A DNA stretch of 63,477 bases, filler included, from Asterionella formosa (Eukaryota): the NCBI GenBank assembly GCA_002256025.1. It is 17 parts of 17 records of this genome, joined end to end, with 100 filler letters (N's around TTAATTAATTAA, not from the genome) between each part and the next. Parts side by side here need not be neighbours in the genome. Positions count along the whole stretch, not along the records: positions 24,041 to 45,177 come from NKIB01003091.1; 16 more parts are not named here. The stretch is one strand, 5' to 3'. The notes below the pieces were generated by a model. It made no database searches, was not told the origin of the DNA, and saw only the letters and a list, made by a program, of their open reading frames with translations. The position numbers were made by a program, and so were the translations under genes. This document shows, piece by piece, positions 519 to 63,155 of the stretch (positions are counted from its first letter, which is position 1; every line of letters begins with the position of its first letter).

Positions 519-1222
519 TTGGTGAATTCCATTAGTAGGCATGGGACGAGTCATTGGGAATGAGTCGAAACTGAACAAGTGCGCGTAAAACGTACGCTAC
601 CGGTACTGGTACTAGTACTCTCGTACTTGGTTCCAGGGTACCTGGTACCAGGTACTTGGTACCAGGCACGATACCAGCATCGATTTGCGTGCTGTAGGGT
701 ATACATGTGTACGTCGGGTATCATGATGCCTGCCTGAAGAAATGCTTACCAGGTATACTACCGATACACAGCGGGCACTACAAGTTTTAATAATGGTACC
801 TGGTACCTGGTACTAGGGACTGGTACCAGGTACCACAATATGTCCGATGATGCATATGCTTTTCACAGCAGGCGTCAATTTAGTAAGTACCCGGTATGCT
901 CGTTGTTTTGAAGTTTGAATTTTGTCTTTGGTGACGTTGCAACCAGGTAGGGGTACCAGGTTCCAGATACCCTGGTACGCACCAGGAGTTGCTGGCTAGC
1001 TGGTAACATACCAATACAGCCCAGGGCGGCTGGCCCGTTTTTTCTGTTCGGCATGATTACCCCCTTCAATTCGTTCCCATCATCATCGCTCGCTCACATG
1101 ATACATGGAAGCCCCAGCCAAGAGAGTAGGTTACCGGTATGTCTGATGCATATGGTTTTCAGTCGCCATGATCAGTGCCATTACGACCTCTTTATGAAAT
1201 TAGAATTGCAAGAATAAGCAAG

Positions 1223-3809: not shown

Positions 3810-6800
3810 CTAAAGAAGTTCATCCCAGTCTATCGCGTCAATCTTTGAATAATGCTTCCCGTCAATGCCTTCCTCTCGTCTGATTTGATAGTATTTTTCT
3901 GGCATGCTGAACCCAGTGTGAGTAGATAGCTCCGTTTTCATCATGGAAACAAACTCTTCGTCATGAGTAATTGCAACAAGCTGAAAGTTCCTCTGCTTGG
4001 ACCGAGAAGCAATGATCTGAGCTAGTGCGATTGCGAGACCGCGCTTGTTGGCATAGTCTAGATTGACTGCAGGTTAATTCAAAGTTAGCATATTCTTTCA
4101 GGATACGTACAAGTCTTGTGTAATACGACAGGTCACCAGCAGCCTTAACAACGAACACTCACCTGTGGGTTCATCCAGAGCAATACAGCCGAAGTTGACA
4201 CAAAATGTTTCAGCTAGAGCGAGACGGATCACAAGACTAGCCAACACACGTTGGCCAGCGCTGCAACGACCGCGCATATCAAGTTGAGTTGTGCCCTTGA
4301 CCATGACCACCCTGTAGTTGTATGACTTTGCAGTGCCCTTTTCTTCTCCAGACTAGACCACACTTGGTGAGAGATGACTAAGAGAAAGTTGAAGATGCAA
4401 TTGCACTGAGATTTTCACGTACCACAATTTCAATGTTGTTGATATCCTCTCCCTGATATTCAAATAGTTATGAGTGAGTTTGATTGGTAATGCGGCCAAC
4501 ATATGAGTGAACAGTAAGATATTACCTTGTATGTCAGGGTCCAGAGCTCGCGAATAATCTTGTTGATTTCTCCGATTTTAATTCCATGATAGCGAATGAG
4601 AGCCTTGTCAAGGGCATTGTGATATTTTTCAAGGTCAGAACATGCAATCACCGTTGTTTCTTGCTTGATTCTTGCCTGGCGATGTCGCTCATCAATGTCT
4701 TTGTACTCGGGCTGTGTTAATTTGCGCTGACCAAGAAGAAATGATGGCTGTGAGGTTGGTGATTGAAGAGTGGCTCAAATAAGCAGGCGCGATCAGCTTA
4801 CCTTCAACGTGCGAATTTGTTCAATCGAACCACTGCGGCGTCCCTCTTTGCGTGCCTTCTTGTCAAGAAGGTCAACAATGCGAGCAGAGGCCTCGTCCAA
4901 CTCTTTAGCTGCCGTATCGTACCCTTCAATCTTTTCTTTCTCGTTCTCAAAACTTTCGATTTCTTTCTTCAGATCTTCGATTCGATGAGTTGCCTCAAGT
5001 AGACTTATGTTCTCCTGGATTAGTTTTCGATGGCGCTCTTGGTCCTCAATACTCCGGTTGAGACTTTCGAGTTCTGGCTCAAGCTCCTGAAGTTGAGACC
5101 GTTTTTCTGCCACGCGACCCTTGAGCTTGTCGATTTCTTCGTTGAGGGCTTCGAGACTGTTGCTGTCAATGCAACGCTTAGCATTTCGAATGATTTCAGT
5201 GTTCAAAGACCGGAGATCAGATACGTCATTGTTGAAGTTGATCAGTATTCCACTGAGACGATCTTCTTCATCCTTTGCAAGGTCGCGATGTTTCTGTTTT
5301 TCGTTTTCCTTTTTCTTTATGACAGGCTTTAGTTTCAAGATATTTTCGTGCAACTCCTTGTCAAGCTCGCCGCACCTTGAGATTATTTCCTGGAGTTCAT
5401 CCTTTCGCTCCTGGGCCTTTCGCTCTTCAGCATACTTGATTTCTTTTTCTCTCACTCGCTGCTCTGTATTGGCAGCCTAGAGCATATTAGTTAGCAAATG
5501 AGTACCGGTAAGCGTATTTGGGGCAAAAATTATTTTTTACAGGGGAATACATACCTGAGTGGAGATGTTACCGATGTTGGTGTTGATGGCGGACATCTCC
5601 TTGTTGAGGCGATTAATCTTATTCATAAGATTGTCTTTTTCTTCCATCTTGCTTTCAACATCGCGTTCAACCGTGCGTAAATTACGATTATTCGTATTCG
5701 AAACTGAAGTCATAGAAAGGGAAAGATCTGTATTCTTTTGACTGATTCGCATTTTCTTGCCTGCAATTTTACCCGCTTCGTCCAACCATCGTTTGGTTAA
5801 TTCGACCAGACTTCTAAAGTCGTTGAATTGAATCTGAGTGGCAGCGTGCTCCTCATTCAGTGTGTCGAGCTGGGACTGGTGAGACAAAACCGACGCGGTC
5901 ATTTCACTTATTGTTGCCTCCAAACTTCCCAATTCTGCTGTGATACGTGCGTGTTCCATCAATTCTGGTATTATTTCATTAATAGAGTTGCGCCAAGTCT
6001 GATAGTTCTTTTTCGCTGCACGGACCCTGTTGGCATTTTCCTTGTTCAACTGCAAAAGTGGCGAGCGCTCTTTGTCACCAAAACCAGCCATGGTATCTTG
6101 AAAAATCTTGATAGAGTCCATATCTTTATTGAAACTTCTTGTGCAGCAAGGGCAAATCACATCTTGCAACTCTCCGTGATCGTCCATAATTTTCGCCTTC
6201 GTTGGAGATATTAGACTAAACAACATTGAGAAACAACCACATTTACTCGCAATCTTACCAGTTTTTTGATCTGCTTGAATAACTTGAACAAAACATCGCC
6301 TGTCAGGCCTTCAACTGATTGTTCGTTGATATTCTCAAGTTGAGCGGTAATATGATTGATCGCGCTTTGAGGATCATTTTCATCAATGGTTGTTGAAAAA
6401 CCGTTTTCCAGCTCAAATCTCTTGATAGTTTTGATTATCCGTTGGTATTTTCCATAGCTTCCGTTTTCGCTGTTCATGACCTTAATCTTGATGGCTAGAC
6501 TTTCAAAAGTCTGATGGTTATGAGTTAGCAAGGCTGACTTTTGTGAAACAATCTGCTGCTTGGAGGTAATGTCACCCGCCGTTTTGGATAGAGTGTTGCT
6601 AGCATCATCAAACCTATCGGAGACGAAAGAAGCTAGCTTCTCCAACTTCTCAACAAGCACCTCACCGGCTTCATCGTCTTCTGAAATCTGAATTGGATCT
6701 GGGATCTGGATATTGTATTTCTGAAAGTCAAATGAATTGTCGCGAATGAAATCTCGCAAATTATCAATATCTTTTGTGCTCTGATCTTTAAGGACTTCAA

Positions 6801-8786: not shown

Positions 8787-9793
8787 GATTCTCGAGTACC
8801 GTACCGGTACGTCTATTCAATAGGAAAACGTCAATGCACAGTGACCTTGCAAGGTATCTTTGGCTATCTCCAGCGTTGCGTTCCTGTTGAGATTTTCCCC
8901 TGGCTGGTTATGACGACAGTCAGTACAACTGCTCGTCTCGTTATCAATCAGAAATGAATACCGGTACCTGGTAGAGTACATTCGTGCCTCAACATAAATA
9001 TGATCATGGGTGATGCAGGCGAAAGTAACAACATGATTTATTTCGGCTGCCGGTACCTGGTATGGTACGTATCCACATCAGGATACGATGCATTTTTAAA
9101 TACTCATATATGAATATATACATCTACTTATAATACCAGATGCGAATACCGATACCGGTATGTATGATGGTTGACACGCACATGAACCGACTTGACACCA
9201 TTTTATTTCTAATGTGTATTATTTAGTACAAGTACAAGTACCGGCATGCTCAGGAGTATAACATACCGTTCTCCAATTATAAATATTTATTATTTTATAG
9301 AAGGTCCACAATGATGGCGCTGGCTGGTGGCAGACAAGGAAAAAAGTAGCCAGCACAAGCAGCGCGAAAACTGTCAGGTATTTATTTCCTCTGTCCAGAA
9401 TTTCTTGCTGGCACGATTTTCTCCAACTCAATGCCTATTGTGAGGCAAGCCCCAAGTTACAGATCCATGCATTGTATGATATAAATATACATGTGGAAAG
9501 ATCAAATTGGTAAGTAGCTCTACATTTGAAGAAACATGTAAGTAGCTCTGCAAAGATTTGAGCATTTTCAGGATTTTTGTATCTTGCCAGAAAGGTAGAT
9601 ACACAAATATGTACTACTACTGTTGATATCGACTCTCAGGAAGCTGAAACAGAGAGTTACATAGTTTACTATTTGAATGACGAAAGGGAAACAATTTTGA
9701 AACAAATTGATAAAGGAGTGGTAGGTTAAAATTTAAATTGTTCTGCTTTGCTGAAGCTCATGTCCTATACTCATGGTTGAAAATACTTTCATT

Positions 9794-10732: not shown

Positions 10733-11808
10733 ATTACTGTAAGTTAGGATGAAATTGGTTTCAGTGTCAACGATTGAGAATTATGTGCAAACAGATAACA
10801 ATCTTTCAGGATGTAGAATGAATGTGTTGCACAAATCTGACAGGTAACGATCAAACGACCTGACCGGCAGTTTCACCTGTCGCTCCTTTCCCATCTGAAG
10901 CCTCATGTCATGGAAACCGCTCTGGTGCGAGAGCCTCTGTGATGCATTTGGAAAGGATTAAATCAGAGAGTGGTGAGACGACTGATGGAGGTAGTTTTTC
11001 TTAATCATAGAAGGCCAGTTCGTCGATGATGAATCGATGCCATGAGAATGAAACTCCAAGAAACAGGTTGTAGGTCGTTTATGTGAGATTTCGTGGTCTA
11101 TGCATGTCTGCAAGTTGCGGTCATTTTGCTTACTTAAATGAACAATTAAATATTGGATAAAGATAGCTATATATTTAGCTTCATTACAAACATCGCAACC
11201 TGCTGGTACGGAGTTCATATGCAAGTAGCTTTTTATCAAACCCTCCTCATCCTCCTGGGGATTTAACATACTGGTAGCTAAATTTCTCTTTTACCGCCAC
11301 TTGCTGGTAGCTAATTGATGCCTACATCTAATTCATCCATAAAATGGCAGCCATAATTTGATATACCGGTAATCACTACATACATACTGGTGCCATACTG
11401 GTACCTGTTACCACCTGATGACCTTCTATCGGAATACTGTACCAGGTACCAGGTACCCTGGTACTGTATCCGGGATTACCTCTACATACTGGTAATGATA
11501 TGAATTTATTTTATCGCACACCATACGATAGCCACCCACAACTTATGATGGCTGGTATTTTAATATTTTGTTATTGGTTTTTAAACCATACTTCCGGTGC
11601 CTATTAATTAATGTGTGTGATTAATTTTTGCTTGTTTATTTATTTATTTACATGAATCGCCGGAGTTTCCTGATCGCACCTGTTGCTTCTTCCAACCGAA
11701 ACTGTTAAGTATAGCGACGAGTAGAAGCAAGCACTTACCAGTATATTGAATAAGAAAAGGAGTAGGTAACCCTTCTTACATTCCGGTAGTTTCTCTTTAT
11801 CTCCAACA

Positions 11809-16677: not shown

Positions 16678-17637
16678 GATGCTCTGTCGCCGTTAAATGA
16701 TGATTTCTTCTGCCAAACGAGAAGTATTGACGGTACTGTAGTCGTTTGAAGTGTGATGGATCGATGAAGCACCCCTGAAGCTGCAAAGGCTGATGATGAC
16801 ACACTTCTCATTTGTGCTCAATACCGGTATATCATTTCGATCTGAAGGCACATCCTATCATGCACCTTTCTTTGCCTGCTGACGACGAAGCATGGCTGAT
16901 GATTAATTAAGGTTGCTGCATTTGAACCCCTAGCTCGAGGTAGGGTTAAAAAGGTAATATTGAGTCAGACTAATCAAACACATACTTTCCACGTATAAAG
17001 ACTCGGAAATTCGGGGGAAATCTGTCTATTTGGCATAAAGGTAGTAAAAAAACCGAAGTTCCTTTCTGCACTTTCTCGCCAGAAGTTATATACTGATGCT
17101 ATTTCAAACTTACCTATGTACCGGTATCTAAATTGCCTTCAGACCCAGCCAACGTTGAGCTATCGTTGTCCAAAAATTCGACTAAATCGGCCTTTTCTAC
17201 AGTCGCCAAAATATCGGAATCAGAATTACCATGAGCCGAAACGTCATCATCGGAATAGTAGTCATGTGCCGGAATTTTTAGTCCTAAAATCTCCTGTCCA
17301 ACAAATTCCATTGTAAGTGACCACTTCCACATATACAATATGATTGGTCAACATGAATTACTTATGTCCATTTGATTTGCCTGATGATGTGCAGGGCGTT
17401 GCAAACTTACGCCAACCACCGCACTGGATGCACATGTAGCTAATACCAATACCGGTACTATGATTTGTTTTGCATTGAAAGAATGGACAGAGTGTGCTGC
17501 TTTTTCTCTGATGATTTGTTGTGGCCTCCTGCTGATCTTGGTCTTCTACTAATAAAGCCACCCCAGAGCTGTAAGTCTTTCCAGTTTTATTGTCGTGCCT
17601 TCCTTGTTTGACAGCTTCAAATCATGCAGCATGAATT

Positions 17638-30677: not shown

Positions 30678-31635
30678 TATTTCCTTGGGTTTATATTTTG
30701 TCTGCAGTCGTGTGCGAGATGTCTGTGTGTGTTTGTTTGTTTCTCTGTGTGCGCGTGTGTATGTATGATGTGAAACCAATGGGAGCTGATATCATCGACC
30801 AGCAGTGAGAGTTTCCGGCGTCGTTTGGGTTTATCAATTATTTACCGGTACTCCGAGTACCGGTAGGATGGAAGAAACTTGATGAATCGAAAAAAGTAAA
30901 ATCGTTTGAGCGTCTTTCATTATACATGTGGTCATATATGCAACAAAGATAAAAGTTATATACGCTGCCGATAGATAGATTTAGCTTATATAAATATTAA
31001 ACAAACATGAATAAAGGTATCATTTGCTACCTCAAAACACTCACAATGACGATTACCGGTACCAGGTACCGGTATTCAGCTCCACACATTTTTGTGCCAA
31101 CCACAGCCATGCCATTGGCTGGCTCATTCATCTTTACCGGGAAGGTCTGCAAGTCGCCGTAATTTTGCTGAAACTAAAGATTTAGCTATCTTTATCTTAG
31201 ATCAAAATGTTAGTTTAAGCAAAATGACCGCAACTTGCTGGTACAATTGAGAATTTTATCATCATCGTTTTCCTCAAAGTTCAAACCGTCCTTCACATCT
31301 TAGCACCTTCTGGAATCAATTTCCAATGAATGTGTACCAGTACAAACGTGGAGTATCACCTGTACATACGCAACTATGAGTATTAATATGGACTGTACAC
31401 CAGGTAGAGATATACCGGTAATGTTATTGCGAATAGCTATCATTCTACCGGTATACAAGAAAAGCTGACCTTGTTCTGGAGATCCTCCCCTGTTGCTCAC
31501 CAGGTCTGTTGGTTAGACAAGACGACTTCAGAAGGAACAAATTCGTCAGGCTTTCTTTGTTGTCAATCGAGGTGCGCTCTTCTCCACTCACTGCATTTAC
31601 CCTTCAATAAAATAGAACGAAAGAACGAAAGAAAT

Positions 31636-32964
31636 ATGGGCTCACGACAACAACGAACGAGGAGGGGTGGTATCCCCATCCCTTCATTTGCGATCAGTGA
31701 GGTTCCTGTCTCTCCTGTCAAGACAATGCGAGCTGCACCTTGGAACCCTCAAATCATCAAACAAGTTGTAGCTGCACTTCAGATCAGACGCATCACCAAA
31801 TCTATCAAAGTTGCGGACTTTTACCAAGCAGTTCAGCATGTGACGGTCACTGACCACGACTCGACTCACGCAACGGAACATTGCTTGGGCAAGGGCGAAC
31901 GCCTCTTGCTAGAACTTCTGTGTGCAACTTCTCCGAACTTACACAAATGGGGAGAAAAGGAAGGGACTTTAGAAGTAGTCCATTTCACTGGGAATAGGCT
32001 GGTGGAGCTGCAGAGACTTTTAAGTGAACCACAGATGTTGATCACCAAATACGATCAATGCCTGAAGCAAGTATTGGGCCACCGAGCCAGCATCAACTAT
32101 CCGCTGCCCATGATCACGTCAACGGAAGAGAAACCAGTGCAACACGAAAAGCTATCCATGATGCCCCAACTTCGACCCGACATGTCACTAGAAGAGCGTG
32201 TCCGAGCCCGCGCCGCTGCCCGGGAGGAACGACAACTAGACGCCAGCGCTTCAACTAGCAGTTCTGTGGATCAATCTGCAATGCTGAGACTCGCTGATGC
32301 GCTCTGGTCTCATTCCAGACACATTCTACTTAGGCAATCTCAGATACAAGCCATGAGCCCCGTCCGACGTGGGAATACAGCCCCAAAGGCTTGTGTCATG
32401 ACAGTAAAGGATATTGTCACAACTTTTGCTAGCTCGTTTGCACCTAGTCAAGAATCAACAACTCATGTTTCCAGGACTGAAAAGGCAACACGAAAGCAAA
32501 TTATTGAAGCTGTCCAGGAACTGCATCGGTTAGCTCCAGATTGGATTTCCTGTTCAGACACGGAACTCACCAAGTCCACAACAATATGGATCAAGCCCGT
32601 TAATTACCAAACGATTCGCGCCAAACTCGGCGCTCCCACCAAAGTGCCCGATCAACTTCAGACTCCAGTCCCTTGCAAACGTTCCCTAGATGTTGACAAA
32701 GCTGTTGTGACACACTCGGCGGGTCCAAAAAGGGCCTGCTCCCCTATCCTCCCTGCCAAGCGGCAGCGCCTCGAAGTGAAGGCACCGCTACTGTCTCCGG
32801 TCGATTCATCTCCTGCCAGCAGGCATACTGTTCTTCGAATCAATCCCAATTTAATTCTAACAGATGCCGACTATGATGGTGGCATGGTGATACAACCGTC
32901 GGAGGAAAGTCCAAGAGGACTCAAACGTATGTTTACGCATATGAATGCGGGGAGACGAATTTGA
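31636..32964 (+). CDS. Divergent CDT1-like replication licensing factor (tentative)
   Basis: SLEERVRAR...MLRLADALW...VQELHRLAPDWI...IWIK...IRAKL resembles the Cdt1 C-terminal winged helix; many SP/TP sites. Confidence 0.55.
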   Translation: MGSRQQRTRRGGIPIPSFAISEVPVSPVKTMRAAPWNPQIIKQVVAALQIRRITKSIKVADFYQAVQHVTVTDHDSTHATEHCLGKGERLLLELLCATSPNLHKWGEKEGTLEVVHFTGNRLVELQRLLSEPQMLITKYDQCLKQVLGHRASINYPLPMITSTEEKPVQHEKLSMMPQLRPDMSLEERVRARAAAREERQLDASASTSSSVDQSAMLRLADALWSHSRHILLRQSQIQAMSPVRRGNTAPKACVMTVKDIVTTFASSFAPSQESTTHVSRTEKATRKQIIEAVQELHRLAPDWISCSDTELTKSTTIWIKPVNYQTIRAKLGAPTKVPDQLQTPVPCKRSLDVDKAVVTHSAGPKRACSPILPAKRQRLEVKAPLLSPVDSSPASRHTVLRINPNLILTDADYDGGMVIQPSEESPRGLKRMFTHMNAGRRI

Positions 32965-33140
32965 AATCCCTCATCGCTGGGAGAACAAAATAGTAACAGG
33001 ATGAACTATTGGTAAGAAAGTAGCAAGAATCAAGCTTTCTTTGGTAAGGAACTAAAGGATAGTATAATATGATGCTGTTACAGAAATCGATCTCAGGGAG
33101 CCTTTCAGAGCATTTCTATATATACAGAATTGATTAATAG

Positions 33141-34199
33141 CTACCTGTACTTTAGTCGTTCGCCATCCAAGGACGCAAAGAGCGTAACTTTCACGGCGCG
33201 CAATATCTCTTCATAGGTAAGAAAAGTAAAGGCCGACGTCAAAACAGTTTGTAAAAGCTTTGCCTTCATTCCAGTAAACAAGGCTCGTAGTCCATGTCCA
33301 CTGTAGAGCTTCACAAGACAGTCCAGGGTCCCATCGTACTTGCACGATGTGGTGCTACCTTTGTTTGACTGCTGTAATCGTAGCAATACTTGAGTCAGTT
33401 GCAACGGATATGTAAGTAGTGTAGCAACACCCTTGGCTAGAGCTCCCATGAAAAATGCCTCTGTCGGTGAAATAGTGCATCGTCGTTTGCGGTGTCGACT
33501 TATGGCAATTGTCTTCAGCTGCTCATAAAGAAAGAATTGAATGACTGGATTGGAGACTAACATGAGCGACGCGTATGTTCCATTCCACAAACTTGGCAGG
33601 CCTTCGGTTTTCATAATTCGTCTCATTTCCTGAATGAGCGATGTGGTGGTATTGTTGGTTGTATTATTCTGTCCCTGAACCATGATTCGAATATTGGCCA
33701 CCCACAATGGATTCGTCACCAAAACGTTGACAACTCCTGCCAGAGTCGATGCCAGGAGGGAACGAATCAACGACCGGTGTTGGAGCATTCGCTTGATTGT
33801 TTCGTGTGCGTAGAAAAACACGAAATTGGAAAGAGCCAGAGTTGTGATAACAGGTGCAACTCCTCGGTAGAGCTCCTTCTGTTTCTCCAGGCGAACAAGG
33901 CAGGTGAGTAGGTCTTCCCTTTTAGTAGCAGAATGATGTGCATCTGTCCCAGAATCCACACTAGATTGAAGCGAACTACTGCAGGTTGTTTCCCAAGAAT
34001 CCGAGGAGGAGCTTTCGCTCAAGATGGCTGCGTCGTTGTTGTTGTCATTGTCATTGCCGGATTCTACCACATGGGCTTGAAGTTCAGTTCTGGCGCGTTC
34101 CAGAGGATAAAACAAAAGCAACGCCAGTGCTGACCCTATCGATCCACCAATAGCGTGTCCCAACGGAGGAACAGAAAATTCATTTCCATCTGTCGCCAT
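33141..34199 (-). CDS. SLC25 carrier, peroxisomal PMP34/SLC25A17/PXN-like
   Basis: Three carrier repeats (YPLERAR, NPLWVAN, YPLQLTQ); LVSNPVIQFFLYEQLK; KLLQTVLTSAF. Confidence 0.85.
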   Translation of the reverse strand: MATDGNEFSVPPLGHAIGGSIGSALALLLFYPLERARTELQAHVVESGNDNDNNNDAAILSESSSSDSWETTCSSSLQSSVDSGTDAHHSATKREDLLTCLVRLEKQKELYRGVAPVITTLALSNFVFFYAHETIKRMLQHRSLIRSLLASTLAGVVNVLVTNPLWVANIRIMVQGQNNTTNNTTTSLIQEMRRIMKTEGLPSLWNGTYASLMLVSNPVIQFFLYEQLKTIAISRHRKRRCTISPTEAFFMGALAKGVATLLTYPLQLTQVLLRLQQSNKGSTTSCKYDGTLDCLVKLYSGHGLRALFTGMKAKLLQTVLTSAFTFLTYEEILRAVKVTLFASLDGERLKYR

Positions 34200-34802
34200 T
34201 GCCCGTGTGGTGCGGTAATTTGTTGTGCTTTTTTATTGTGGAATGTTGGCGGATGGATGATGATGAGAAACAAATCAGCATCAAAGGACAGGACGATGAA
34301 AATGAGAAAGAGGACGGGGACGAGGGGGATTTCCGGTACATGCAACATTCCGGTATGGTATGATATGCAAGCCAGCTGGCAGTCGTAGTAGCTATATTTT
34401 TGGAATCGGACAATGTACCGGTAGTACAACATATATACGTTTGGATAAGATTTCTACCGGTACTCGGGTCATGCAAACATATACCGGTATGTATGGGAGT
34501 ATATTTATTTTTGAATCAAACCGAAACACAGCATACGCACCGGTAGCTATGCATAATACGCACATGGGAATATACATCATCATGGAATGAAACAGATACC
34601 GGTACCCCGGTATGTATGATAGTAAATCAAAGTATCGGTACATGAACAATACTCCTTCATCGGAACCAGGCACACCTTGACGACGTCCAGCATCATTATC
34701 CTTTCAAGTGATGTCTGTATGAATATGCATCAGCATGATTATTTGAACCATGAAACATAGAACAAATCCCTCAAGAACAGCAAAAGAATCCTCAACAATT
34801 CC

Positions 34803-36012
34803 ATGAAGAGCTACAATAAAACGAATGGAAGGTCGATGTCAGCACCAAAACAAGCTCGTTGTCGTGCCATCACGATCATCATTCTAGTAGCTGCGTTTAC
34901 ATGGGCTTTCGTAGTGATTACATGGGCCTACTCATTGATGATTAAGCCATCAGCACCTGTTGCTGATAAGCAAATGATGGACGTGAAAGTGCAACGGCGA
35001 ACAAGCATTGACTTATCGCCCGACGATACACAACACCCAGCATTCATGGAAACGATCAAGAGCTGCGACCCAAACAAAAATGCCAAGTGCATGACCTTTG
35101 TTCCCGAAGGAGCACAAGGGGATCGTATTGCCGTTCTTTATCCTCCTGGAGCATTGGGGTATTTGTTTGAAACGTTTATTTTGGAAGTGGTGCAGTTGCA
35201 TGAACCAAAAAACTTGAATGCTACCCAAATTGAACTTATTCAATCAAGCCATGTCCCTCCAGTAAGTCCACACAAGCAACATACATCAAAAGTTATGGTG
35301 CCTCCTTCACTTCTAACCTTTGCTGTTTCATCTATTCTAGTATGGATATGGTAAAACACATGGACTCACAAAAATTATAAGACTGTTAGTGGCACCTTTG
35401 CAGTTAGCAGCTGCTGACCTGGTTTTGGGACGAATTAACAAGGGTGAAGTCAACCTGGAAGATGTTCGATACACTGATATTCAACAGTCGATGAGACAGA
35501 TTGTTAGATGGCATTGCCGACTATCCCATGTGGCAGCTCATACATCACTCATGACAATAACTTTGGAACAATTGATGAGTGATCCCTGGGGTCAAGAGTA
35601 TTTTGTTGCTCAGTTTTTGAACTTTCAACCGAAAGAATTTCTAATCCAACAACACTTAATGATGGAACAACATATTGATGAAGATGCATTGGAAGAATCT
35701 CTTGAACAAATTTTGCTGTATGAAAATGACTTGTTATTGCGAATAGAAGAGGCAGAAAAGTTACCAGATCAAATTGAACACCTTCTTGATGAAGTAGTTA
35801 ACCAGGAACTCGAATTAACACACAGCTTAAAGGATTGGCCATGTTTATCATTTTGGAATGCAGGAGATCAATCAAATCCAACTGAAATGAATGTAATCGC
35901 CAAACTTAATGCTCAAGACTTTGCTCCTAATTGTGATGGAGAGTTTTCGAGCTGCTTTGTGGCTCAAGACAAATGTGAAGCCAAGGGTGATGCTATTTGC
36001 AGGGACAAATAG
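34803..36012 (+). CDS. Hypothetical type II membrane protein, two exons (intron 35262-35340)
   Basis: N-terminal TM helix; GTAAGT...CTAG intron joins two ORFs in frame (HVPP|YGYGKTHG); Cys-rich C-terminus. Confidence 0.75.
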
Positions 36013-37101
36013 TCATAGCTACATCCGTTATCACATGATAATATAAGAACTCTGCAAGTCACATCACTATTATGTAAATTACTAATCAGAATAGTTTACT
36101 GGTAGTCTCCATTCCCTATACTGTACCAAACACAAATGCAATCATGCAAATGTTACAGATTATACTTGTGTTGTAGTAGGAGTGCAGTAAGTCACAGTAT
36201 CGCATGGAAAAATATCTGGCAGACTTAACTGCAAATTCGAGTTTCTGTTACAAACTATATGCACTCAAATCTAGATGTAGATCATTTTGTACCCATGTGA
36301 CTCTTCAAGCAATGGCAGTTGTGATACCAAATATGTAACATCTTAAGCGCCCATATGAAGTTTGATGTATCATCTTGGATCTATATAGATACTGGACTGG
36401 CTTCTCAATATACTTGGTGTTTTGATAAGCTAGTACTTGGAAACTGCATATTTGTTTTATGAATTAGATGGAATGATGATATGCTTATAAAATGATGGAT
36501 GTGGCTGTCATTGGTGCATTACCCCAAACAGAAATGCAAATGATGAATGATGTTTTATTTAATAATAGGGTGACATGATACAGTTGCCATCTTCAGCACC
36601 ACAACATATACCCTCTTTGGGTCTTGTGTAAAGGTTTGTGTCATTTTTGCTCCCAAGGCCCATCCTAGTATATATCAAAAGTCACACTAGTTTCTTGCAG
36701 ATACATGTGTATATAGGGCTAGGGTTATAACAAGGACTCCATCAGAACTCGATTACCAGGTACCGGCAGCATCCTCGACTGCATAGCTAACACCTAGCAG
36801 TGGTACTGGTGTGATGATTGAATACGACTTTGATTTCACCAACGCAAAACATAAGATATGTTCGGGTAAATAGTTGTATGTATATTCAATAAATACACAA
36901 TATACCGGTACTTCTTCTAGTTAGATACCGGTACCCTGGTACCTGGTACCAGTATTTCAACCGCTATAAGCATCATAGAATATATTTCATACATGTGCTA
37001 CCGGGTAACAGGTAGCAGGTACTCCGTACTATACATACATACTAAACTATATTATGCATACATATCTATCCATTTATGTTACATGCATACCGGTACAATA
37101 T

Positions 37102-37518
37102 TGTTGAAATGGTCCGTACTCCTTCCCGCGGGCTGGGTCTCTCTTCACGTAGGCTCTTACGTGCTCGTAGTACTACCTCGTACCACTTACTTTCTCTCTC
37201 GCCTCTGCTTCTACCGGTAGCCTTCCTGATAGATACCGGTAGACTAATTGACCTTCCTGTCAATTAACACACTGTTTCCTTGGTTGATAATTTAAACTCA
37301 AATTAAATTATAAGCTAAACTAAATGTTTCCTTTCCGTGCATCTTTGCTTCCCGCAAAGTCGTTCTAAGACTCTCTTCGAGTTTCCACTTGACATTTCCA
37401 TAGAAATCTTCAATCTTTGATCTTGTTAGACAGCTGATTGACGTGGCAATCCAATGTTCGACTCGTTCGATTACAATCGAGTCCACAATCCTTGTGACTC
37501 GGGCTAATATTCTTGACA
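37102..37518 (-). mobile_element. Solo LTR of the Copia family seen at 59357-60536
   Basis: Reverse complement aligns end to end with 60131-60536 (TGTCAAGAAT...TTTCAACA); no internal sequence; imperfect flanking repeat CAATAT/CAATTT. Confidence 0.92.
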
Positions 37519-37691
37519 CAATTTATCATCGAGTCCGAGGTGAACAAATCCTTCCTTCGCTCAACTTGTTCGTTTGACTTCTCGGATACCGGTAATAATA
37601 TATTCTTTTCCTTTTCATACTTTTGCGTCTCAATTTTCTCATCCCGCGAAACGGAACAGAACAACAATCATCCCTTAGAGTCGACAAGCGA

Positions 37692-38231
37692 ATGGGTCGA
37701 ACGTGCAGCTCGTGCAATTGCTACTTGGACAGGGCCGACTTTAGTCGAAACCAGTGGATGAAAGGCGATGGTTACTCTCGATGCACCGACTGTGTGGATG
37801 CGTACACACCAGTGCGGGCACCTGTGTACCAATGTGTAATTTGTTACCGTGAGTTCAACAATCAAAATGAGTTGAAAATGCATCAGCAAGTTCATCGACC
37901 GCGAGATGTCTCCTGTCCTGTTTGTGGTGACCGTCGGTTTCGTTCTGGAGCCAACGCTGTTCAGCACATTGAAGCTGGGTCTTGCCGTGGTTGTCGTGGC
38001 AGTGACAATGCTAGACAGCAGATTTACAAATTTGCTTCTCAGCAAACCCAAATGCGCCATTTTTTGACGGAGGTGCCCATGTTGACCTATGGAGGCTACG
38101 AGAACAATACGGTTCCAGACTTCCCATATGAGTGTCGTGATTGTCAAAAGGCCTTTCGCCAACTCAGTCAGCTCTTGCAGCACCAGGATCAAAAGCACGG
38201 AATTCCCAGCACCCGATATATTTCCTACTGA
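37692..38231 (+). CDS. Small zinc-finger protein (Stc1-like C4 module plus C2H2 fingers)
   Basis: CSSC...FSRNQW...RCTDC; YQCVICYREF..QNELKMHQQVH; CPVC..RF...AVQHIE; YECRDCQKAF..LSQLLQHQDQKH. Confidence 0.82.
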   Translation: MGRTCSSCNCYLDRADFSRNQWMKGDGYSRCTDCVDAYTPVRAPVYQCVICYREFNNQNELKMHQQVHRPRDVSCPVCGDRRFRSGANAVQHIEAGSCRGCRGSDNARQQIYKFASQQTQMRHFLTEVPMLTYGGYENNTVPDFPYECRDCQKAFRQLSQLLQHQDQKHGIPSTRYISY

Positions 38232-38888
38232 TCAACACCATAGCATAATAAAATGTTTTCTGTAGCCAGTTTATATATGCTGCTGTTCCAATAGCATCTT
38301 ATTTATCTGCCTGAATAGGAACTAACAACGTTCCTAGGACAAACTCAAATTAGTAAACTTTTTTGTTGCCTGGTCTCATCATAGTATGATTGCAATTTTA
38401 TCAGTTGCATTTTTCTCAAAAGGTCTACTGGTATATTTATTTAATAAATAGAATCACACTGAGAAGTCTTGGTTTTTATTTCACTTTGTGTCACTCCATC
38501 ACTTTGCCTTCCAATCAAACAGAAGTTGGGAGAATACCGAACCTATTGTTGTAATTAAGGCTATCAAAGGGAAGACCACAAATTAAAATCACAAATATCC
38601 AACACAACCTGATGTTGCATGGGAAACCTTGAAATAGAGTGCAGTATTCCAGACAAGAAAGGGGGGGAGGGTCAAATGCTACGGTAATCCTACGGAGGGC
38701 TTGTACCAGTCGCCCGCCTGTCCATGAACAGTCATTGCAGGATTCCCACCTAGATCGGTTCTCCCCGTTGAGCGTGCTCCTTCCCAGGAGCGCGTAGTAC
38801 CAGGTATAATGTGTACCGAGAAAGTACAACACTACTATCAAGGAACGATTGTGTGTACCTGTAGTAATAGATTGTTAGATAACAAAAG

Positions 38889-40844
38889 ATGAACGATTCT
38901 CATAATGATCGAGGAAATGGGAAAAGAAGAGGCTCAATGTTGGTGCTGGGATATTGCGGAAGAAAAAGGACCAGATGTCAAGCAAAGGTATCACACCTTT
39001 TCGCTCTAGTTTTCTGCTTCCAAAGTGCAGATACCTTCACCACAACAACACCCTTCGGTGTGTCGGTTCCTGTGCAGAAATTCAGATTCGCTCGTCGACC
39101 AATTCATCAAGCGAAACGTAAACCAGTGATATCACAGTCGCAGTACCCTCCCTCCCATTCAAACCAAACCATTGATTTACTCTTGGAAGACCTGGGATAT
39201 GGAGAAGATATTGACGAACATAGGTATTTCGATGACGAGAATTCAGACGCTCAAGCCGGCGACGAAAGGACTGACTTGGGTGAGGAGGACAGTGAAGTTT
39301 CAGAAGTTTCTTCTATTTTATCGAATCTAACCTTGGCAGTGATAACGCCTGAAGCCAAAGCACGAGACGACGATGATACCTTCTCTGATCTTGAGGCACT
39401 CCTGGCGAACTTGAATCTAACGATAGCTCCGGCCGAAACCAATGATGTTTACTCGTCAGTTCTGACGTTGGAGAGCTTGAGCAAAATAGCCAACTCTTCC
39501 GACATCGCATACTTCTACCTACAAAATGAGCTTAAAATACCCAGCGAAGATATGTGGAAAATTACCAATGAAGCTGGATCCATTCTTGGCTTGACCGCAA
39601 GGACGCTTCGACACAAGGTTGAACTACTGAGACGGACGATGGACCTCAGCGACGAAGATATTAGAACAATGATGAAGAGACATCCATCCGTTTTACAGCT
39701 CAGCGCGGACAAGAACCTCGCTCCGACAATTCTCTTCTTACAACGAGCCCTTGATTTGAGTCGCGAGGACCTTCGGGCGTTGATTGTTCCTTTTCCTTCT
39801 ATTCTATGTTATTCCATGACAACTCTGAAGGAAAAGATTAACGTATTTACCAAAATATTGGGATTCTCGATTGATGAATGCCGATCCCTATTTGTGAACC
39901 AACCTAAGCTACTCACTGCAGGCGTTAAGACTGGCTTGCTTCCTAGAGTTAAGTTCATGTTGGGAGAAATGGAAATGCCGATAGACGAGTTTCGAACCCT
40001 GATAAAAAAAAATCCACTTATTTTGCTTTATAGTCTTGAGCATAACCTCCGACCGAAACTCATCTTCTTCTTCATCATGACACTCCACATGGACACCCGA
40101 CACTTATCAAAATTGCTTCTCAAATACCCTCAAGTCATCGACTACAACCTTGAAAATCACATGCTTCCCATTTTTCGCTACTTCATTATTGACTTGGAAT
40201 TCTCTCCCACGGAAGTTCGTCAAATTCTCCTCAAATTTCCGCGCCTAATGACATGGTCGCTCTTGAAGATAAAACATGTTGTTGGCTACTTCCGATACGA
40301 GCTAGGGATGGATGCATCACAAGTCAAGCGCATCTTGTACCAGGCTCCCCAAATCATCGGTTTGAGTGAAGCGACTATGAGGCGTAAAGTCCATGACTTG
40401 CAGGAGACATTCTCATTAAAAGACGAAGAGCTCCGTAGCTTTTTTGGTGGCATGCCCACGCTCATCATATGTTCCTATGAGGCCAACTTGTATCCAAAGA
40501 TTGAATTTCTACGAGGTATCTTGGGGGACAGAGAATTACGAGAAGCTGTACTTTTACAGCCCTCTCTTCTTGCCTACTCACTAGACAAGCGAATTCAGCC
40601 AAGAATGCAAGCAATTCTCGGTATCGGAGCCCATCCTCGAGCTATTACGGTCGGAATTTCAATGAAAGACGATGCATTTCGTCTTTGGTTGAATGGGCGG
40701 CGTTCCAGACTCGCACAAGACCCTGGTTACGATCGTGTTAACAAAAAAAGTGGTGAAGTTGACTTGTTGCCAATAGCTACTCCAAAGGTCGAAGCAGTAG
40801 ATCGAAGCAAGCGAATTGTACATTGGAATAGAACAGTCGAATAG
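38889..40844 (+). CDS. mTERF-family protein, organellar
   Basis: Repeated P.(I/V)L.YS.E..L.PK..F units (HPSVLQLSADKNLAPTILFL, NPLILLYSLEHNLRPKLIFF, QPSLLAYSLDKRIQPR). Confidence 0.9.
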   Translation: MNDSHNDRGNGKRRGSMLVLGYCGRKRTRCQAKVSHLFALVFCFQSADTFTTTTPFGVSVPVQKFRFARRPIHQAKRKPVISQSQYPPSHSNQTIDLLLEDLGYGEDIDEHRYFDDENSDAQAGDERTDLGEEDSEVSEVSSILSNLTLAVITPEAKARDDDDTFSDLEALLANLNLTIAPAETNDVYSSVLTLESLSKIANSSDIAYFYLQNELKIPSEDMWKITNEAGSILGLTARTLRHKVELLRRTMDLSDEDIRTMMKRHPSVLQLSADKNLAPTILFLQRALDLSREDLRALIVPFPSILCYSMTTLKEKINVFTKILGFSIDECRSLFVNQPKLLTAGVKTGLLPRVKFMLGEMEMPIDEFRTLIKKNPLILLYSLEHNLRPKLIFFFIMTLHMDTRHLSKLLLKYPQVIDYNLENHMLPIFRYFIIDLEFSPTEVRQILLKFPRLMTWSLLKIKHVVGYFRYELGMDASQVKRILYQAPQIIGLSEATMRRKVHDLQETFSLKDEELRSFFGGMPTLIICSYEANLYPKIEFLRGILGDRELREAVLLQPSLLAYSLDKRIQPRMQAILGIGAHPRAITVGISMKDDAFRLWLNGRRSRLAQDPGYDRVNKKSGEVDLLPIATPKVEAVDRSKRIVHWNRTVE

Positions 40845-40914
40845 TTCAATATTAAGAAATGACTCGAGTGTGCATATCATTCGAGTGGTAGAGTAGAAGT
40901 ACATTATCTTCGCA

Positions 40915-43900
40915 TTAAAACGTATCGCTCGTCCATCGATGGGCAGTTAAAGCAGCAACCACCGAACGTCTAGCGACGTCAGATCCCATCAGCGAGAGAA
41001 ATAGCGTTTCGTCATCCGATCTAAAGTATAGCATGTTTGTTATCCCTCCAGTTTCGAGAGACCCCATTTCAACCAGTAGACACAACAGACGGTTACCCGA
41101 TAAAGTCATGAATGCCCATCCCTTCGTGCTCCAACCAAAAGTCCCGATTGGCTCCAAGACTGTAACAACTGAGCTATCAGCAACAGATGACGCATATTCA
41201 TCCTTCGTCACTCCTATACTCCGTGGAACAACAGGCAAGAGCATCATTTCGGGCAACCTGTGTGGCATTTGATACCACAGGAACCGGAAAACATCAATAT
41301 CGCCCCGCCCATCCCTAAAGAAAACAAGTGGACAAGGGTGCATTCCAACCATTGGAGATAATCTCACTGGCTCTCCTTGAAAGACAATATCCATGTTATC
41401 ATCATCGACGCCTACAATAGTATCGTCTCCGAGTGAGCCATCTCGTGACATCCCAGGATCAGTTTCTTCGTCGTCATCACCGCTATTCTTCGATTCGGAA
41501 CCCTTCATTTCGTGTTGAACTTCCTGCTCAATCATTTTTGGAGCTGGATGCTCAGATTCCATTTCTCGGAATGTTACTGAAGGGTGGAGCTCAATCGTTC
41601 CCGATGGCGGCCAATTATCCACGGTGACCTCCCAGGTTACGTGATCTCCTGGCTTTATTTCTTGTTTATAGATAGCTTGGGTAGAACAAAGAATATGACC
41701 TTCACTGCCTTTTCCACCTGCAATAGCAAAGGCGCTTCGCTGTTGCATAATATTCAGATCCATTCGGACACCTTGAGCAATCCCTACTGCAGTGACATTG
41801 TACACACGCATGGTAACCACAAGCCTGTATTCAGGTTCACAATCGTATCTGGGACAACGCCGGACCGAGTATGCCAATACAAACGAGACAGGATCTGAAC
41901 CCCCTGACAATGTTTGGATAGCTCCGCTGGTAGAAACTCGAGCACTTTTGGAAGTTCCGGCTTTTGGCAATCGATTCAAAGGTAGCGGTGGCGGCGCAAG
42001 TCGAAGCCAGTTACGGGAATGTATCAATAGTGGAGGTGAAACTCCACGAGACAACGCTGCTATTGGTGCGGTTTGAATTGATGCGTCAATCCTAGAACTC
42101 ACAACCTGTTTACAATACTGAGTGAAATATGCATAATGGGCTGAGTCGTTGATGACTAGGGGAGCATCAATCACAAAATCTGTCAAAATAAATGGGGACC
42201 GTCGAACGTCAGTGAAATGAAGGTCAGTGCTTCCTTTTTGAATCTGAGACGATGCTCGTCGATTGAAATCTCTCGCCGCGGTTGTCACCAGAAGTGAGAA
42301 GATTGATGGACTTTCTATTAAATCTTCAATTCGCTTCACGGCTTCCGAGCAAATTCGTAGCATAGGTGGACCCAGGCGGTCACCTTGGTCACTGTCATTG
42401 CCTTCCTTTAAATTTCCACCTTCAAGTGCTGCTAGAGCCACAGACACAATATATTTTGAATTGTCTAAATCACCCCCCTCATTGCCAGCACAATCTGCAG
42501 CAGTCAAGGCAATATTTTCGACGGCTGCAACACAAACATCTATATATTTGAGATGGCCTTGCCCAGAGCCTACAATTAGGTTCAACTCTCTGGTCAAAGA
42601 AGAAATTTCTTCCGAAAGAACCGTCAACAACTCCCTGGCATTCATTTCGTTCATATTCTGCGCCAAGGATTGTTCGTTCGAAAAAATAGAATGGACCCAA
42701 TGGTCAGACAGCAATGATATTAAAGAAATCCTAATATGTCTTGATGGAACGCCCTCACGAAATCTGTTTTCAAGAAATTGGTCTGCCAAGGCCCACAGAT
42801 CTTTTTGATAATAGTCTAAGCCTTCAATTTGCCGAAACCTTGCTAGCGCGGAATTAGCAACGGCCAAGTCTTCTAGCAAAAGGATTCTTTCTGGACTTGC
42901 CAGCGGTAGTAAGTGAAGCGAGACGGATGATGCCGGCGAAAGCGACCCAGTGATGTAGAAAATTTGATGAAAGAGACGGATATAGCTTGCTTGACATGCA
43001 GTTAGCATTGAGAAAAGGGTGCGTGAATCGATGTCCTCGTTTGGAAGGGGCGAATCCAAAGTGCGGGAATGCCAATTCACACACCAACTCAAATTAGTTA
43101 ATATCACAATCGAAGAAGAAACCCAATCTTCTAGTTCCTTCGATAATATCCCGCATTCAAGGTATCTTTCTCCCATTTCGCATGCAACGCTGCAGAAAGC
43201 CAGTACCAACTCTTCTGCGACATGTGTTGCAACAAATTCTTCAGTAGGCGTGGGGCCACCTGGAGCTCGGGTGCCACCAGACGATTGATCGTGCCCTTGA
43301 CTAGAAGTGGATTGATTAGAAGCCCAATTGTGCACTTGCTTCTTTCTGATAGAACGAGAGCTGATAAGAGCCTTGGCTTCTGGAGATTGGAAGAAAAGTT
43401 CGATTTGTTCTGCTCTGGAAGTATCCGAAGGGCCGTCTATTAAGAACGACAAGGCCAACTCAGTTAGAAATCCAACCCGAGCTGGGCGTCTGTAAAAACC
43501 ACCAACAAATAATCCTGGACTAGTTACTCCTGAAGGAGCTATTGTTGTGGAAGGCAAGAAACGAACTTCATTAGCAACAACCATTAGTGGTGTGGTTCGT
43601 TCATCCAACGGAAGGCCTCGTAGCGCCACCATCAATGTAGCAATCACCGCCATTTTGTGCTCCAATACGTCCATTGCAGCCAGTTGCTCTTGTAAGACTA
43701 CCACCGCCCACCGACAGACATCTCCCACCCAGCTGGTATGAGGACAAACATGAGCCAATCGAAGCGCGCTGAGAGTTGATGCATGTGCCAAATCACTTCC
43801 ATTCCCTTGTTGCATAGCTGGCAAGAGCATGGAAATCACAACGTCATGAACGATTCCCAATGCATCAACTTCGATCCACCGCTTGGCGTAACTCACTCGA

Positions 43901-45120: not shown

Positions 45121-45177
45121 TGAAGAATGCAGGAATCAAACCTATGAAGGCGTGCTAACCAACTGAGCAATCCCCCC
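45121..45177 (-). pseudogene. tRNA-derived sequence lacking the anticodon arm
   Basis: GGGGGGATTGCTCAGTTGGTTAGCACGCC-TTCATAGGTTTGATTCCTGCATTCTTCA: A-box/D-arm, B-box/T-arm and acceptor-like ends in only 57 nt. Confidence 0.6.
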
Positions 45178-51589: not shown

Positions 51590-52319
51590 TTATAGCGGTA
51601 CATAACTGAAAGCCTTTTGTAGTTTTACCATACGCAAATCCTAGAAAAGTTAGACTTCTAGTAGTAGGTACAGTACTTGCAGATATATATCCTCAGTCAC
51701 ACATCCTAAATGTCATTAATGCTCATTGCATCCAACTCCCGGAATGCAACAAATGTCCATACCGGGACCGGTAGGTTGTTTGTTGAATGATTGCGCGGTA
51801 CCGGCATAACTCCCAAGCTGGTGGTAGGTCACGACACAACAACGAATCGAATGGATTGCTTTGAAAATTGTTAATAGGAATATACCACACACCACTTGTG
51901 ATTTCCCCGCTTAGAAATGGAATGATGATTAGTTCGCATCATGGTTTCTAAATGTATGTACCGGTATATGTATTGAGTGAACTGACTTACGGGTACTAAC
52001 TGGGAGGTACTTAGTGTTACGGTATATCCTTTAACATTTATGAATAGTCCACAGCTGCACAGTCTACCGGTATATGCATATTCTTCTAAATAGCCAACCT
52101 AATGCCATAAATGGAGGAAGTGACCACGTACATAGGGCGACTCGGACATAAAACAAGCTCTGGTCATCGTGACATTTACGTATGCTTGTACATAGAAATA
52201 CATTTTTGGACTACCGGTANNNNNNNNNNNNNNNNNNNNNNNNNNNNNNNNNNNNNNNNNNNNTTAATTAATTAANNNNNNNNNNNNNNNNNNNNNNNNN
52301 NNNNNNNNNNNNNNNNNNN

Positions 52320-55623: not shown

Positions 55624-56270
55624 TTAGCGTTTGAGTACCGGTACCCGGTATGTGCACTCTCGACTTTAGTACATTACAGGCGGAGTGACTTCGCTACTAA
55701 ATTGCGTGATATAATAATATACCCTGTAGCACGATGCAGAATACAGTTGCTTCCCAATCATCTCATTATGATTGATAAGATCATACTGTGATATCATGAT
55801 AAGGTTACATCGATACATACATCACCAAAGTATGATACGTAATATTGAATAAAGTACATCACATAGCTATGATACATTGATCATAGAACTATGATAATTT
55901 TATAAAATGTTTATGATATAATTTTGATCAAAATATGATCATGTAAAAATAGTACAATGACAATAAAATACGATAAAATATGTATGCAAGTGTTATCGAT
56001 ACATCACAGAATATAAATCAAGCAATCATAAAGTATGTTAATTAATATATATGTTTGTCGTTTAATATATACAGTTAAAGTCAACAGTTAATATGATAGT
56101 ATTATACAGTGGATAGGATCTAAGTATACGGATGCGTTGATATGTACATCACTATAATATGATTTGTGACATGATGGATTGATGCATATCACATACCGGT
56201 ATCCACACAACCAGCTATCACGTTCATTGTCGTGTCGTCTTTCCTTGTTTTAGCTATACCGGTATATATG

Positions 56271-57066: not shown

Positions 57067-57067
57067 T

Positions 57068-59356: not shown

Positions 59357-60536
59357 AATTAAGTCGTACGCAACGCCGGGTGTACCAGGAAAGACATTGA
59401 ACAAGAATGACGGTGAAGTCATTATGGAAGGAGAATATCGAAAAATTGTGGGCAAGTTACTATGGTCTACAAAGAAGGATTCGCCGGACTGTGCGAATGC
59501 GGTTCGGGAACTATCGGCTCAGTTAAGTTGCCCAGGTGAAGAACAATGGCATGCAGTGGCAAGAGTCATTGGTTACCTATCCAAGATGGAGGATAGAGGT
59601 CTCAAGTTGCGTAAGCCAAAAGAGTTAAGAGTCATTGCCTACGTGGACAGTGACTGGGCTGCTAATAAGGTTAACAGGAAGAGCACGACTGGCTATCTTG
59701 TTACTATTGGCGGGGCACTTATCAGTTGGCAGTCGAAGGGACAACAAACGGTTACGCTGTCCAGTACGGAAGCCGAGTATGTGGCGATGTCCCAGTGTGG
59801 ACAAGAGATCAAGTTTATAGCAATGCTACTGAATGAGGTTACTGGTGGTAAGGTCATGTTACCAAGTATCCTACGAGAAGACAATACAGGAGCTATTTTT
59901 ATCGCGAAGAATCAGCAAATCGGAACCAGGACAAAACATATTGATATTAAGTATCATCATGTAAAGGACATGATTGAGGATGAAGAATTGGAAGTCATTT
60001 TTATAAGGTCGGAAGATAATTTTGCGGACATTATGACCAAGAACGTGAAGGAACAGATTCATACGAGATTGTCCGAACCAGTTCAGAGTGGAACGATGTT
60101 ACAGCCTCTTGAGCGTGGCAATGGGGAGGATGTCAAGAATATTAGCCAGAGTCACAAGGATTGTGGACTCGATTGTAATCGAACGAGTCGAATATTGCAT
60201 TGCCACGTCAATCAGCTGTCTAACGAGATCAGAGATTGAAGATTTCTATGGAAATGTTAAGTGGAAACTCGAAGAGAGTCTTAGAATGACTTTGCAGGAA
60301 GCAAAGATGCATGGAAAGGAAACATTTAGTTTAGCTTATAATTTAATTTGAGATTTAGATTATCAACCGAGGAAACAGTGTGTTAATTGACAGGAAGGTC
60401 AATTAGTCTATCTAGCAGGAAGGCTAGAAGCAGAGACAAGAGAGAAAGTGAGTGGTACTAGGTAGTACTACGATCACGTAAGAGTCTACGTGAAGAGAGA
60501 CCCAACCCGCGGGAAGGAGTACGGACCATTTCAACA
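59357..60536 (+). mobile_element. 3' end of a Ty1/copia element: RNase H, PPT and 406-bp LTR (60131-60536)
   Basis: YRKIVGKLLW, YVDSDWA, RKSTTG, LSSTEAEY, EDNTGA, RTKHIDIKYH, ADIMTK; GGGGAGGA then TGTCAAG...TCAACA. Confidence 0.93.
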
Positions 60537-62562: not shown

Positions 62563-63155
62563 TGTCAATGTCGTCTTGAATGTAATGAGAGTTGTCTATT
62601 GTTTATTCGAGATACTTCTTTGGTTTATTCGAGCGACTTTCTTGTTCGTGTTAAAGCTCTTTTTCTTGTCGTCGCGGTGATTGAAAAGTTATAGTGTCTC
62701 TACCACTTGCTTGTCGTAGAACTCTACGCAACTCATTCCTCCTATTACTAGGTGTCATGTTAGTCTAGCATTCTTACGTGCGTCTATTCTATGTACCAAT
62801 AGTTATCTCGTAGCATAAATAGCTGCAGGTACATAATGCAATATGTACTATGGGCTAGTATATAGCATCACGTACTAATCATGATCAATCCCGTGTACAT
62901 GTATGTGTACTACATATGGGTACCATGAAAGGGTACACCTTTCATTAGGGTTGACGTGGTATACATACACAGTGTGTATTGTGTAAATCTCTTTTTTGAG
63001 AGTAAACAAGTACCGGTATACAGGACTTATACGATCTAATATACCGGTATGAATAACATTATAATGTATATCATTCTTACATGGCCATCACTCTGGTAAG
63101 TACAACACAGTGCACTTCTACATATTGATTTCAAAAGACAAACAACCGGTACTAA

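Follow-up and report, generated by a model that had tools for sequence, protein, structure and literature searches.

Short units built on the palindrome TACCGGTA have been gained by insertion at TA dinucleotides in the window, by which we mean the whole stretch of 63,477 nucleotides from Asterionella formosa that was analysed; where formerly a single TA stood, two TAs now enclose the inserted bases, as found in a pair of LTRs and at three columns (1383, 1660 and 1716) of a haplotype alignment from a related diatom. We suggest that the units are, on balance, probably the scars of a TA-duplicating transposon with CCAG...CTGG ends, and that a 90-bp MITE found among them is a PIF/Harbinger-like element that targets the 9-base form of the scar. 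The initial annotation had noticed the motif and read it as an excision footprint; its observation is real, and excision scarring is the best-supported mechanism.

Two unit gains in a solo LTR

A solo LTR on the minus strand (37102..37518) is 92.3% identical over 418 columns to a sister LTR on the plus strand (60131..60536, with TACCTGGTA at 60540, immediately outside it). When the two regions are aligned (37060-37620(-) against 60090-60663(+)), the only two 6-base gaps within the shared LTR are CCGGTA units at TA, each consisting of CCGG and the duplicated TA; the resulting copies of TACCGGTA lie at 37212..37219 and 37234..37241, 22 bases apart in otherwise plain sequence and more than 100 bases from any further unit. 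The sister LTR has a plain TA at both sites, and reads AGTCTATCTA at 60405-60414 and GGCTAGAAG at 60422-60430.

Contigs from four sequencing runs of four studies (X2, X7, X9 and X18) were aligned to 25178-45177. In the X9 contig of the LTR, six letters are missing at 37214 and 2+4 letters at 37233-37236, with a depth of 282 of 282-286; the loose ends of the LTR in X7 and X18 read ...GCTTCTAGCCTTCCTGCTAGA, and the units are absent there as well. Since the sister LTR and the X9, X7 and X18 copies are all without the units, both indels are polarised as gains in the solo LTR, as the initial annotation had proposed from the sister LTR, and the two TACCGGTA motifs were not already part of the LTR family. 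At 7.7% divergence, 2 of the 28 TA sites in the LTR have gained a unit. No CCGGTA indels were found in the aligned parts of three other repeat comparisons (51336-51599/63145-63408, 55165-55553/60764-61130 and the tandem copy at 19776-20200). In run X2, each variant site of the solo-LTR family (36517-37850) draws 29-39 different contigs, so that the family is high-copy in this genome.

The motif itself is present in the independent sequencing runs: single-copy contigs of X2 have the scars with few differences, and one of them over 31217-36127, a region with six copies of the 8-mer, has 14 differences and 6 gap letters. As the same stretches recur in independent runs, the motif is no assembly artefact. 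Contigs of X2 and X7 are also 6 letters shorter than the window (over 31217-36127 and 31209-33312, respectively), and an X2 contig is 12 letters longer across 37492-45169; these length differences could be scar polymorphisms.

Forms and distribution of the units in the window

Exact TACCGGTA occurs 36 times in the window, against a mean of 0.26 and a largest value of 2 in 100 dinucleotide-preserving shuffles, and is the top-enriched 8-mer of the window. The initial annotation had counted roughly 30 or more copies by eye with about one expected, and all 13 positions that it listed are among the 36. Further forms are the 9-mer TACCWGGTA (17 copies), the CpG-decayed forms TACTGGTA and TACCAGTA (13 copies) and seven other sequences of the type TACC-N1-2-GGTA, so that all forms sum to 73 matches; TACCATGGTA does not occur in the window. 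Units are also joined into tandem arrays, eight in all, for example TACCGGTACCAGGTACCGGTA. Units with at most one mismatch cover 923 of the 30,130 non-coding bases (~3%), compared to ~144 in shuffles. Not one of the 73 matches lies inside a long ORF (ATG-trimmed, at least 150 aa), in line with the earlier impression that the motif is missing from host exons. Such ORFs take up half of the window (31,939 of 62,069 non-N bases) and contain 1,345 of its 3,522 TA sites.

The enrichment is limited to one register. Of 142 CCGG sites, 36 are TA-flanked on both sides, and CCGG in other registers is found almost exclusively within TA-registered arrays. Between TACC and GGTA, the units of the window have no inner base (36 cases), A/T (17), C/G (3), CT (3) or CC (1); in the 12 metagenome loci scanned for this the corresponding numbers are 21 for no base, 57 for A/T, 1 for G, and 0 for both CT and CC. 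Of the 60 window units with up to two inner bases, 53 have CCGG or CCWGG as their core, which is consistent with the ends that we infer for the element. This near-fixed series fits fixed terminal bases and not random filler, and the TA-flanked, register-specific and fixed-sequence form of the units fits transposon excision scars. The commonest one-mismatch variant of TACCGGTA is the CpG transition (13 observed, 2.3 expected), an excess that fits neutral decay of scars.

Most copies are found upstream of genes or between divergent genes, with others in LTRs, MITEs, one intron and retroelement debris (positions are given without strand). At 598..977, an upstream intergenic tract rich in scars and decayed scars has an 8-mer at 598, arrays at 639-654 and 797-812, and further members at 747, 824, 888 and 968. 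The copy at 5503..5510 lies in a GT...AG intron of a RAD50-like gene with an AAA_23 domain, as the initial annotation had it, and a cluster upstream of the same gene (8802..9160) has members at 8802, 8959-8973, 9054 and 9153. Downstream of the MITE copies at 11110-11304 described below, an 8-mer at 11364 is followed by a three-unit array at 11440-11463 (together 11364..11463), and three isolated copies of TACCGGTA lie upstream of the acyl-CoA oxidase gene (16822..17457). Between the ELP3 gene and the next gene (30843..31074), there are scars at 30843 and 30858 and the array TACCGGTACCAGGTACCGGTA at 31054-31074; two copies of TACCGGTA (31413..31453) lie ~200 bases upstream of an ATG at 31636. 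Two divergent genes have four 8-mers between them (34416..34612), one of these within a two-unit array. Scars and a three-unit array (36926-36948) adjoin the solo LTR at 36754..37095. The retroelement-rich parts contain three copies of TACCGGTA at 51959..52219, and a two-unit array with two 8-mers at 55636..56264. Two more copies, 31 bases apart, are found at 63011..63049.

The window is gene-dense with few introns, and encodes PPR, mTERF, ELP3 and acyl-CoA oxidase proteins as well as Copia-type reverse transcriptases. Its ELP3 is 83-86% identical to the proteins of Asterionellopsis, Pseudo-nitzschia, Fragilariopsis and Seminavis, and near-identical DNA was found in 20 runs of 16 studies among the matches listed, mostly freshwater or lake metagenomes; the diatom-like ELP3 and these runs together indicate a freshwater diatom. 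The window also has 32 N runs, each exactly 44 letters long, which enclose TTAATTAATTAA in pairs and are spaced at about every 1,408 bases (21141-24040 and 45178-62170). They are restricted to retroelement-rich parts, where they bound several apparent ORFs, and look like inserted masks or stop cassettes and not like biology. An apparent excess of TTAATTAA is spurious, as 32 of its 36 matches lie in these cassettes; the copy of TACCGGTA at 52212 abuts such a block.

Two further observations concern other repeats. Within the masked repeat region, 21664-22190 (+) has a weak NDC10_II-like match (E 1.1e-4), and may be a Crypton- or DIRS-type tyrosine-recombinase element. A GC-rich repeat of ~210 bases (26720-26931) varies in internal length in each of the four runs, where its summed depth is very high; no scars flank it.

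Units in the genomes of related diatoms

A metagenome scan with the terminal inverted repeat (TIR) of the MITE gave 25 loci, of which 17 have MITE-like copies and 8 are unrelated. The 17 MITE-bearing loci, on contigs under several different record-name prefixes, hold 26 8-mers and 75 9-mers in 25,930 bases, whereas the 8 unrelated loci (22,450 bases) have neither. The scars thus extend to other diatoms beyond the organism of the window. The 8-mers outnumber the 9-mers in the window (36 vs 17) and the order is reversed in the metagenome loci, a shift which suggests lineage differences in element ends or repair. A separate metagenome scan with the neighbouring lineage-specific protein gave 42 pattern matches, none of them confirmed, and thus neither a relative nor orthologous loci of the window; viral contigs had no match for the MITE TIR and none for a GGTACCW array.

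Three of these contigs (L024, L011 and L006) are haplotypes of one locus from a related diatom, 94-97% identical to one another. L011 alone has TACCGGTA where the others have TA (column 1383 of the alignment); at column 1660 the haplotypes differ in which of two TAs, 4 bases apart, holds the CCGGTA unit; at column 1716 a 13-base insertion, CCAGGTA+CCGGTA (7+6), is found at a TA within the MITE; and at columns 1597 and 1816 arrays vary by 7-base steps. Another MITE copy, in L003, contains three nested units at one TA. CCGGTA-type indels are therefore seen in a second repeat family besides the LTR, as the 13-base and three-unit insertions both lie at TA inside MITE copies. The alignment of the pair L007/L022 has no CCGGTA indels.

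L024 and L011 differ by 55 substitutions in 1,766 aligned positions (3.1%); across 141 TA sites, at least 7 differences in scar units separate them. These figures and those from the LTR place the rate of gain per TA site at about the order of the substitution rate per base. Such a rate is high, yet not extraordinary for an active transposon, and the jumping "at very high frequency" that had been proposed at the outset is not needed.

The alignment of L024, L011 and L006 also contains six indels of exactly 5 bases (columns 145, 205, 649, 742, 776 and 1403), of which at least two are clear tandem duplications (GTAGA and CATCT). They may represent a second scar class, a bare 5-base target duplication without insert.

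Origin of the units and comparison with known systems

In our preferred reading, the 6- and 7-base insertions would be scars left at donor sites by a cut-and-paste DNA transposon whose insertion duplicates TA and whose ends read 5'-CCAG...CTGG-3'. On excision, the transposase would cut a few bases inside each end, so that each flank retains TA and 2 to 4 terminal bases. End joining could then give the 8-mer (TA-CC+GG-TA), the 9-mers (TA-CCA+GG-TA or TA-CC+TGG-TA) and, rarely, a 10-mer (TA-CC+CTGG-TA). As each scar offers two TAs, repeated hits on them would build (GGTACCW)n arrays, and the central CpG would decay to TG or CA. Scars would persist in promoters, introns, LTRs and MITEs, and be absent from exons. 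The 90-bp MITE would be a second element, with the preferred target TAC|CWG|GTA (the 9-base scar) and duplication of CWG. The maker of the scars may be low-copy, because the rate of gain per TA is only about that of point substitution.

The initial annotation had attributed the footprints to a TA element with CC...GG termini, and suggested a search for such an element with its transposase. The form of the units and the direction of change fit this attribution; the element and a Tc1/mariner transposase were not found. When the window (62,069 non-N bases) and the 17 MITE-bearing loci were scanned for TA-CC...GG-TA elements in which 13 or more of 16 terminal bases match, no element was found, as every match derived from an array. 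Pfam domains of Tc1/mariner or PIF transposases are absent from 77 distinct ORF translations, and no site among the haplotypes compared was filled in one and scarred in another. The window does contain a decayed Mutator-like transposase, in pieces, at 17677-19651 (-), with PF20700 matches at 18367-18654 (E 1.2e-9) and 18977-19651 (E 4.4e-5).

The MITE is present in the window on the plus strand at 31149..31238 (TIR GCAAGTYGCSGTMATTTTGC; TIRs GCAAGTCGCCGTAATTTTGC / GCAAAATGACCGCAACTTGC, with CTG direct-repeat flanks), where many run contigs diverge precisely at its ends, and at 11110..11203 (TIR GCAAGTTGCGGTCATTTTGC, flanks CTG...CTG); a degenerate second copy follows the latter, after 11203 and up to 11304. 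Its usual context is TA-CCW-GCAAGT...ACTTGC-WGG-TA. A solo MITE TIR is found at L020:512-560 and L010:880-919, directly upstream of ...AAAATGGAACGC... at an ORF start, and in L020 the ORF continues downstream into what by eye is an LRR-like repeat; a MITE end may here have been co-opted into a 5' leader or promoter. The ORFs adjoining the solo TIR matches in L020 and L007 encode no transposase, and a PIF-type transposase with a Myb-like ORF1 partner was found neither in the window nor among the listed ORFs of these two loci.

The foremost alternative is that the MITE family and an unseen autonomous partner are themselves the scar maker. The element would then be CCW-GCAAGT...ACTTGC-WGG, TA would be duplicated in a Stowaway-like (Tc1/mariner-type) manner, exit would leave TACC(W)GGTA, and short local hops would give the 7-base arrays. 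The MITE is indeed the sole repeated element seen with the usual flanks TA-CCW...WGG-TA, and its first four bases in this reading, CCAG, are those of the ends inferred from the 8-, 9- and 10-mer series. Five of the seven haplotype scar-unit differences lie inside the MITE or within ~120 bases of it, and the array abutting a MITE end varies by exactly one 7-base unit. The loose ends in X9 also lean towards complementary bases, with at least 16 CCA vs at least 8 CCT on the left and at least 20 TGG vs at least 11 AGG on the right, numbers that count contigs and not copies.

The flanks of nine independent complete copies speak against this. W is the same base on both sides in eight of the nine, where a perfect inverted repeat needs complementary bases (one of nine), and is uncoupled from the orientation of the element (T,T and A,A in four copies each, T,A in one). 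TA is intact on both sides in only two of the nine copies, so that a Stowaway-like arrangement is not what the MITE displays, and TACC is missing on one side in both window copies, L002 and L019. Immobile copies with damaged ends may, however, be over-represented among those that persist, and we regard a MITE that makes the scars as unlikely, though still deserving of attention.

We believe instead that the MITE more likely targets the 9-base scar than makes the scars. As W is equal on both sides, the flanking repeat is direct and not inverted; CWG/CWG is perfect in four of the nine copies, has one mismatch in four and fails in one. Where TACC is missing on one side, both window copies nonetheless keep a perfect CTG/CTG; L002 has CTG/CAG, and only one end of L019 is visible. 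At least 10 of ~25 MITE ends read TACCW, while TACCWGGTA accounts for only 17 of the 1,845 CWG sites of the window; the MITE thus has an extended target preference of ~9 bp, provided that the TACC flank is target and not element. A 3-base repeat together with a 9-base target is known for PIF/Harbinger, and we therefore read the MITE as a PIF-like element that targets the 9-base scar. That a second element should target exactly the 9-base scar of a first is a striking coincidence, and counts against our main reading.

A different possibility, a form of which the initial annotation had also raised, is that no resident transposon takes part and that TA sites acquire CCGG or CCWGG through TA-directed break and repair, for example through a domesticated transposase or nuclease, or by polymerase-theta-type templated insertion from nearby GGTACC arrays. 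This would be in keeping with the failure to find either a source element or a transposase in the window, the 17 loci and the 77 ORFs, and new units do cluster near existing ones, as templated insertions would. Templated repair should, however, use any microhomology register, and only the TA register is enriched; moreover, the two gains in the solo LTR lie in plain sequence, far from any other unit. An exact TA duplication around a fixed palindromic core is the textbook scar of a TA-duplicating transposon (PMC5224488), and we consider break-and-repair improbable.

Still less credible is that TACCGGTA serves diatom promoters as a cis-regulatory palindrome under selection, so that its excess would be due to selection and not mutation. 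The location of most copies, upstream of genes or between divergent genes, would agree with this. However, copies arise by 6-base insertion and not by point changes, they also lie in LTRs, MITEs, an intron and retroelement debris, haplotypes place them at alternative TAs 4 bases apart, and they decay by CpG transition. A later co-option of some units as regulatory elements is possible. Finally, an assembly, adapter or masking artefact, which the artificial N44-TTAATTAATTAA-N44 blocks might bring to mind, can in practice be dismissed, as the same scars recur, with few differences, in contigs of four runs from four studies, and the 26 8-mers and 75 9-mers of the MITE-bearing loci stand against none in the unrelated ones.

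As a rule, excision scars are few and untidy, and k-mer statistics do not reveal them. The scars described here are uniform enough to count and polymorphic between close haplotypes; they would document the activity of DNA transposons in diatoms directly and in a datable way, supply promoters with 6- and 7-base variation, and possibly serve as a marker system for diatom populations. We tentatively put forward a two-layer economy, in which a low-copy, TA-duplicating transposon writes uniform palindromic scars, the 9-base form of which serves a specialised PIF-like MITE as a harmless landing pad. If true, scars arising at a rate per TA similar to that of point substitution would lengthen and rewrite promoters and build GGTACCW arrays, and this would be the first case of a transposon targeting the excision footprint of another. 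A MITE that targets scars would amount to a new kind of transposon safe-site strategy.

The literature search (subscription journals and closed supplements lay outside its scope) gave no paper that describes such motifs, arrays or scars for diatoms. Searches combining diatoms with excision footprints, MITE, mariner or ACCGGT gave nothing relevant; matches to the motif strings were primer, barcode and construct papers only, among the matches listed, and the two array strings were found in no paper. The mechanism of excision scarring is known; what appears to be new is the scale and uniformity of the scars, the building of arrays, and a MITE apparently living in the scars of another element.

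An over-represented 8-base palindrome is also known from cyanobacteria, where HIP1 (GCGATCGC) is tens of times more common than expected (PMC4390886). The likeness is an analogy only, as the units here belong to a eukaryotic nuclear genome, are found in non-coding DNA only, and arise by 6-base insertion at TA.

The closest parallel is to Tc1/mariner footprints. Excision of Sleeping Beauty leaves a canonical "cag" or "ctg" between the TA duplications (PMC5224488), and the footprints of a rice Stowaway element after its excision in yeast measured 6, 9 or 12 bp (PMC2836001). As in these footprints (Sleeping Beauty TA-C(A/T)G-TA; Stowaway/Osmar), a TA duplication here brackets a few fixed terminal bases, the central A or T would be set by the retained end, and the additions are small and of in-frame size, such as 6 bp. 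In contrast, the units have CC(W)GG as their core and their putative element is unseen, and the scars are uniform, provide the most enriched 8-mer of the window and form tandem arrays. Such uniformity is unusual when set against rice, where a plain duplication was left by only 8 of 94 excisions, and deletions or filler by the other 86 (PMC4423477).

The MITE for its part resembles PIF/Harbinger elements and Tourist-like MITEs such as mPing. PIF/Harbinger elements duplicate 3 bp, prefer an extended 9-bp target and excise precisely (PMC2836001); the MITE has TIRs, a 3-base flanking direct repeat, and a preferred 9-base target made up of the repeat and 3 bases on each side. It differs from them in that its triplet is CWG and not TWA, and in that the preferred 9-mer would be the scar of another transposon. 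A CWG duplication within a palindromic target is a feature of the zebrafish Harbinger3_DR.
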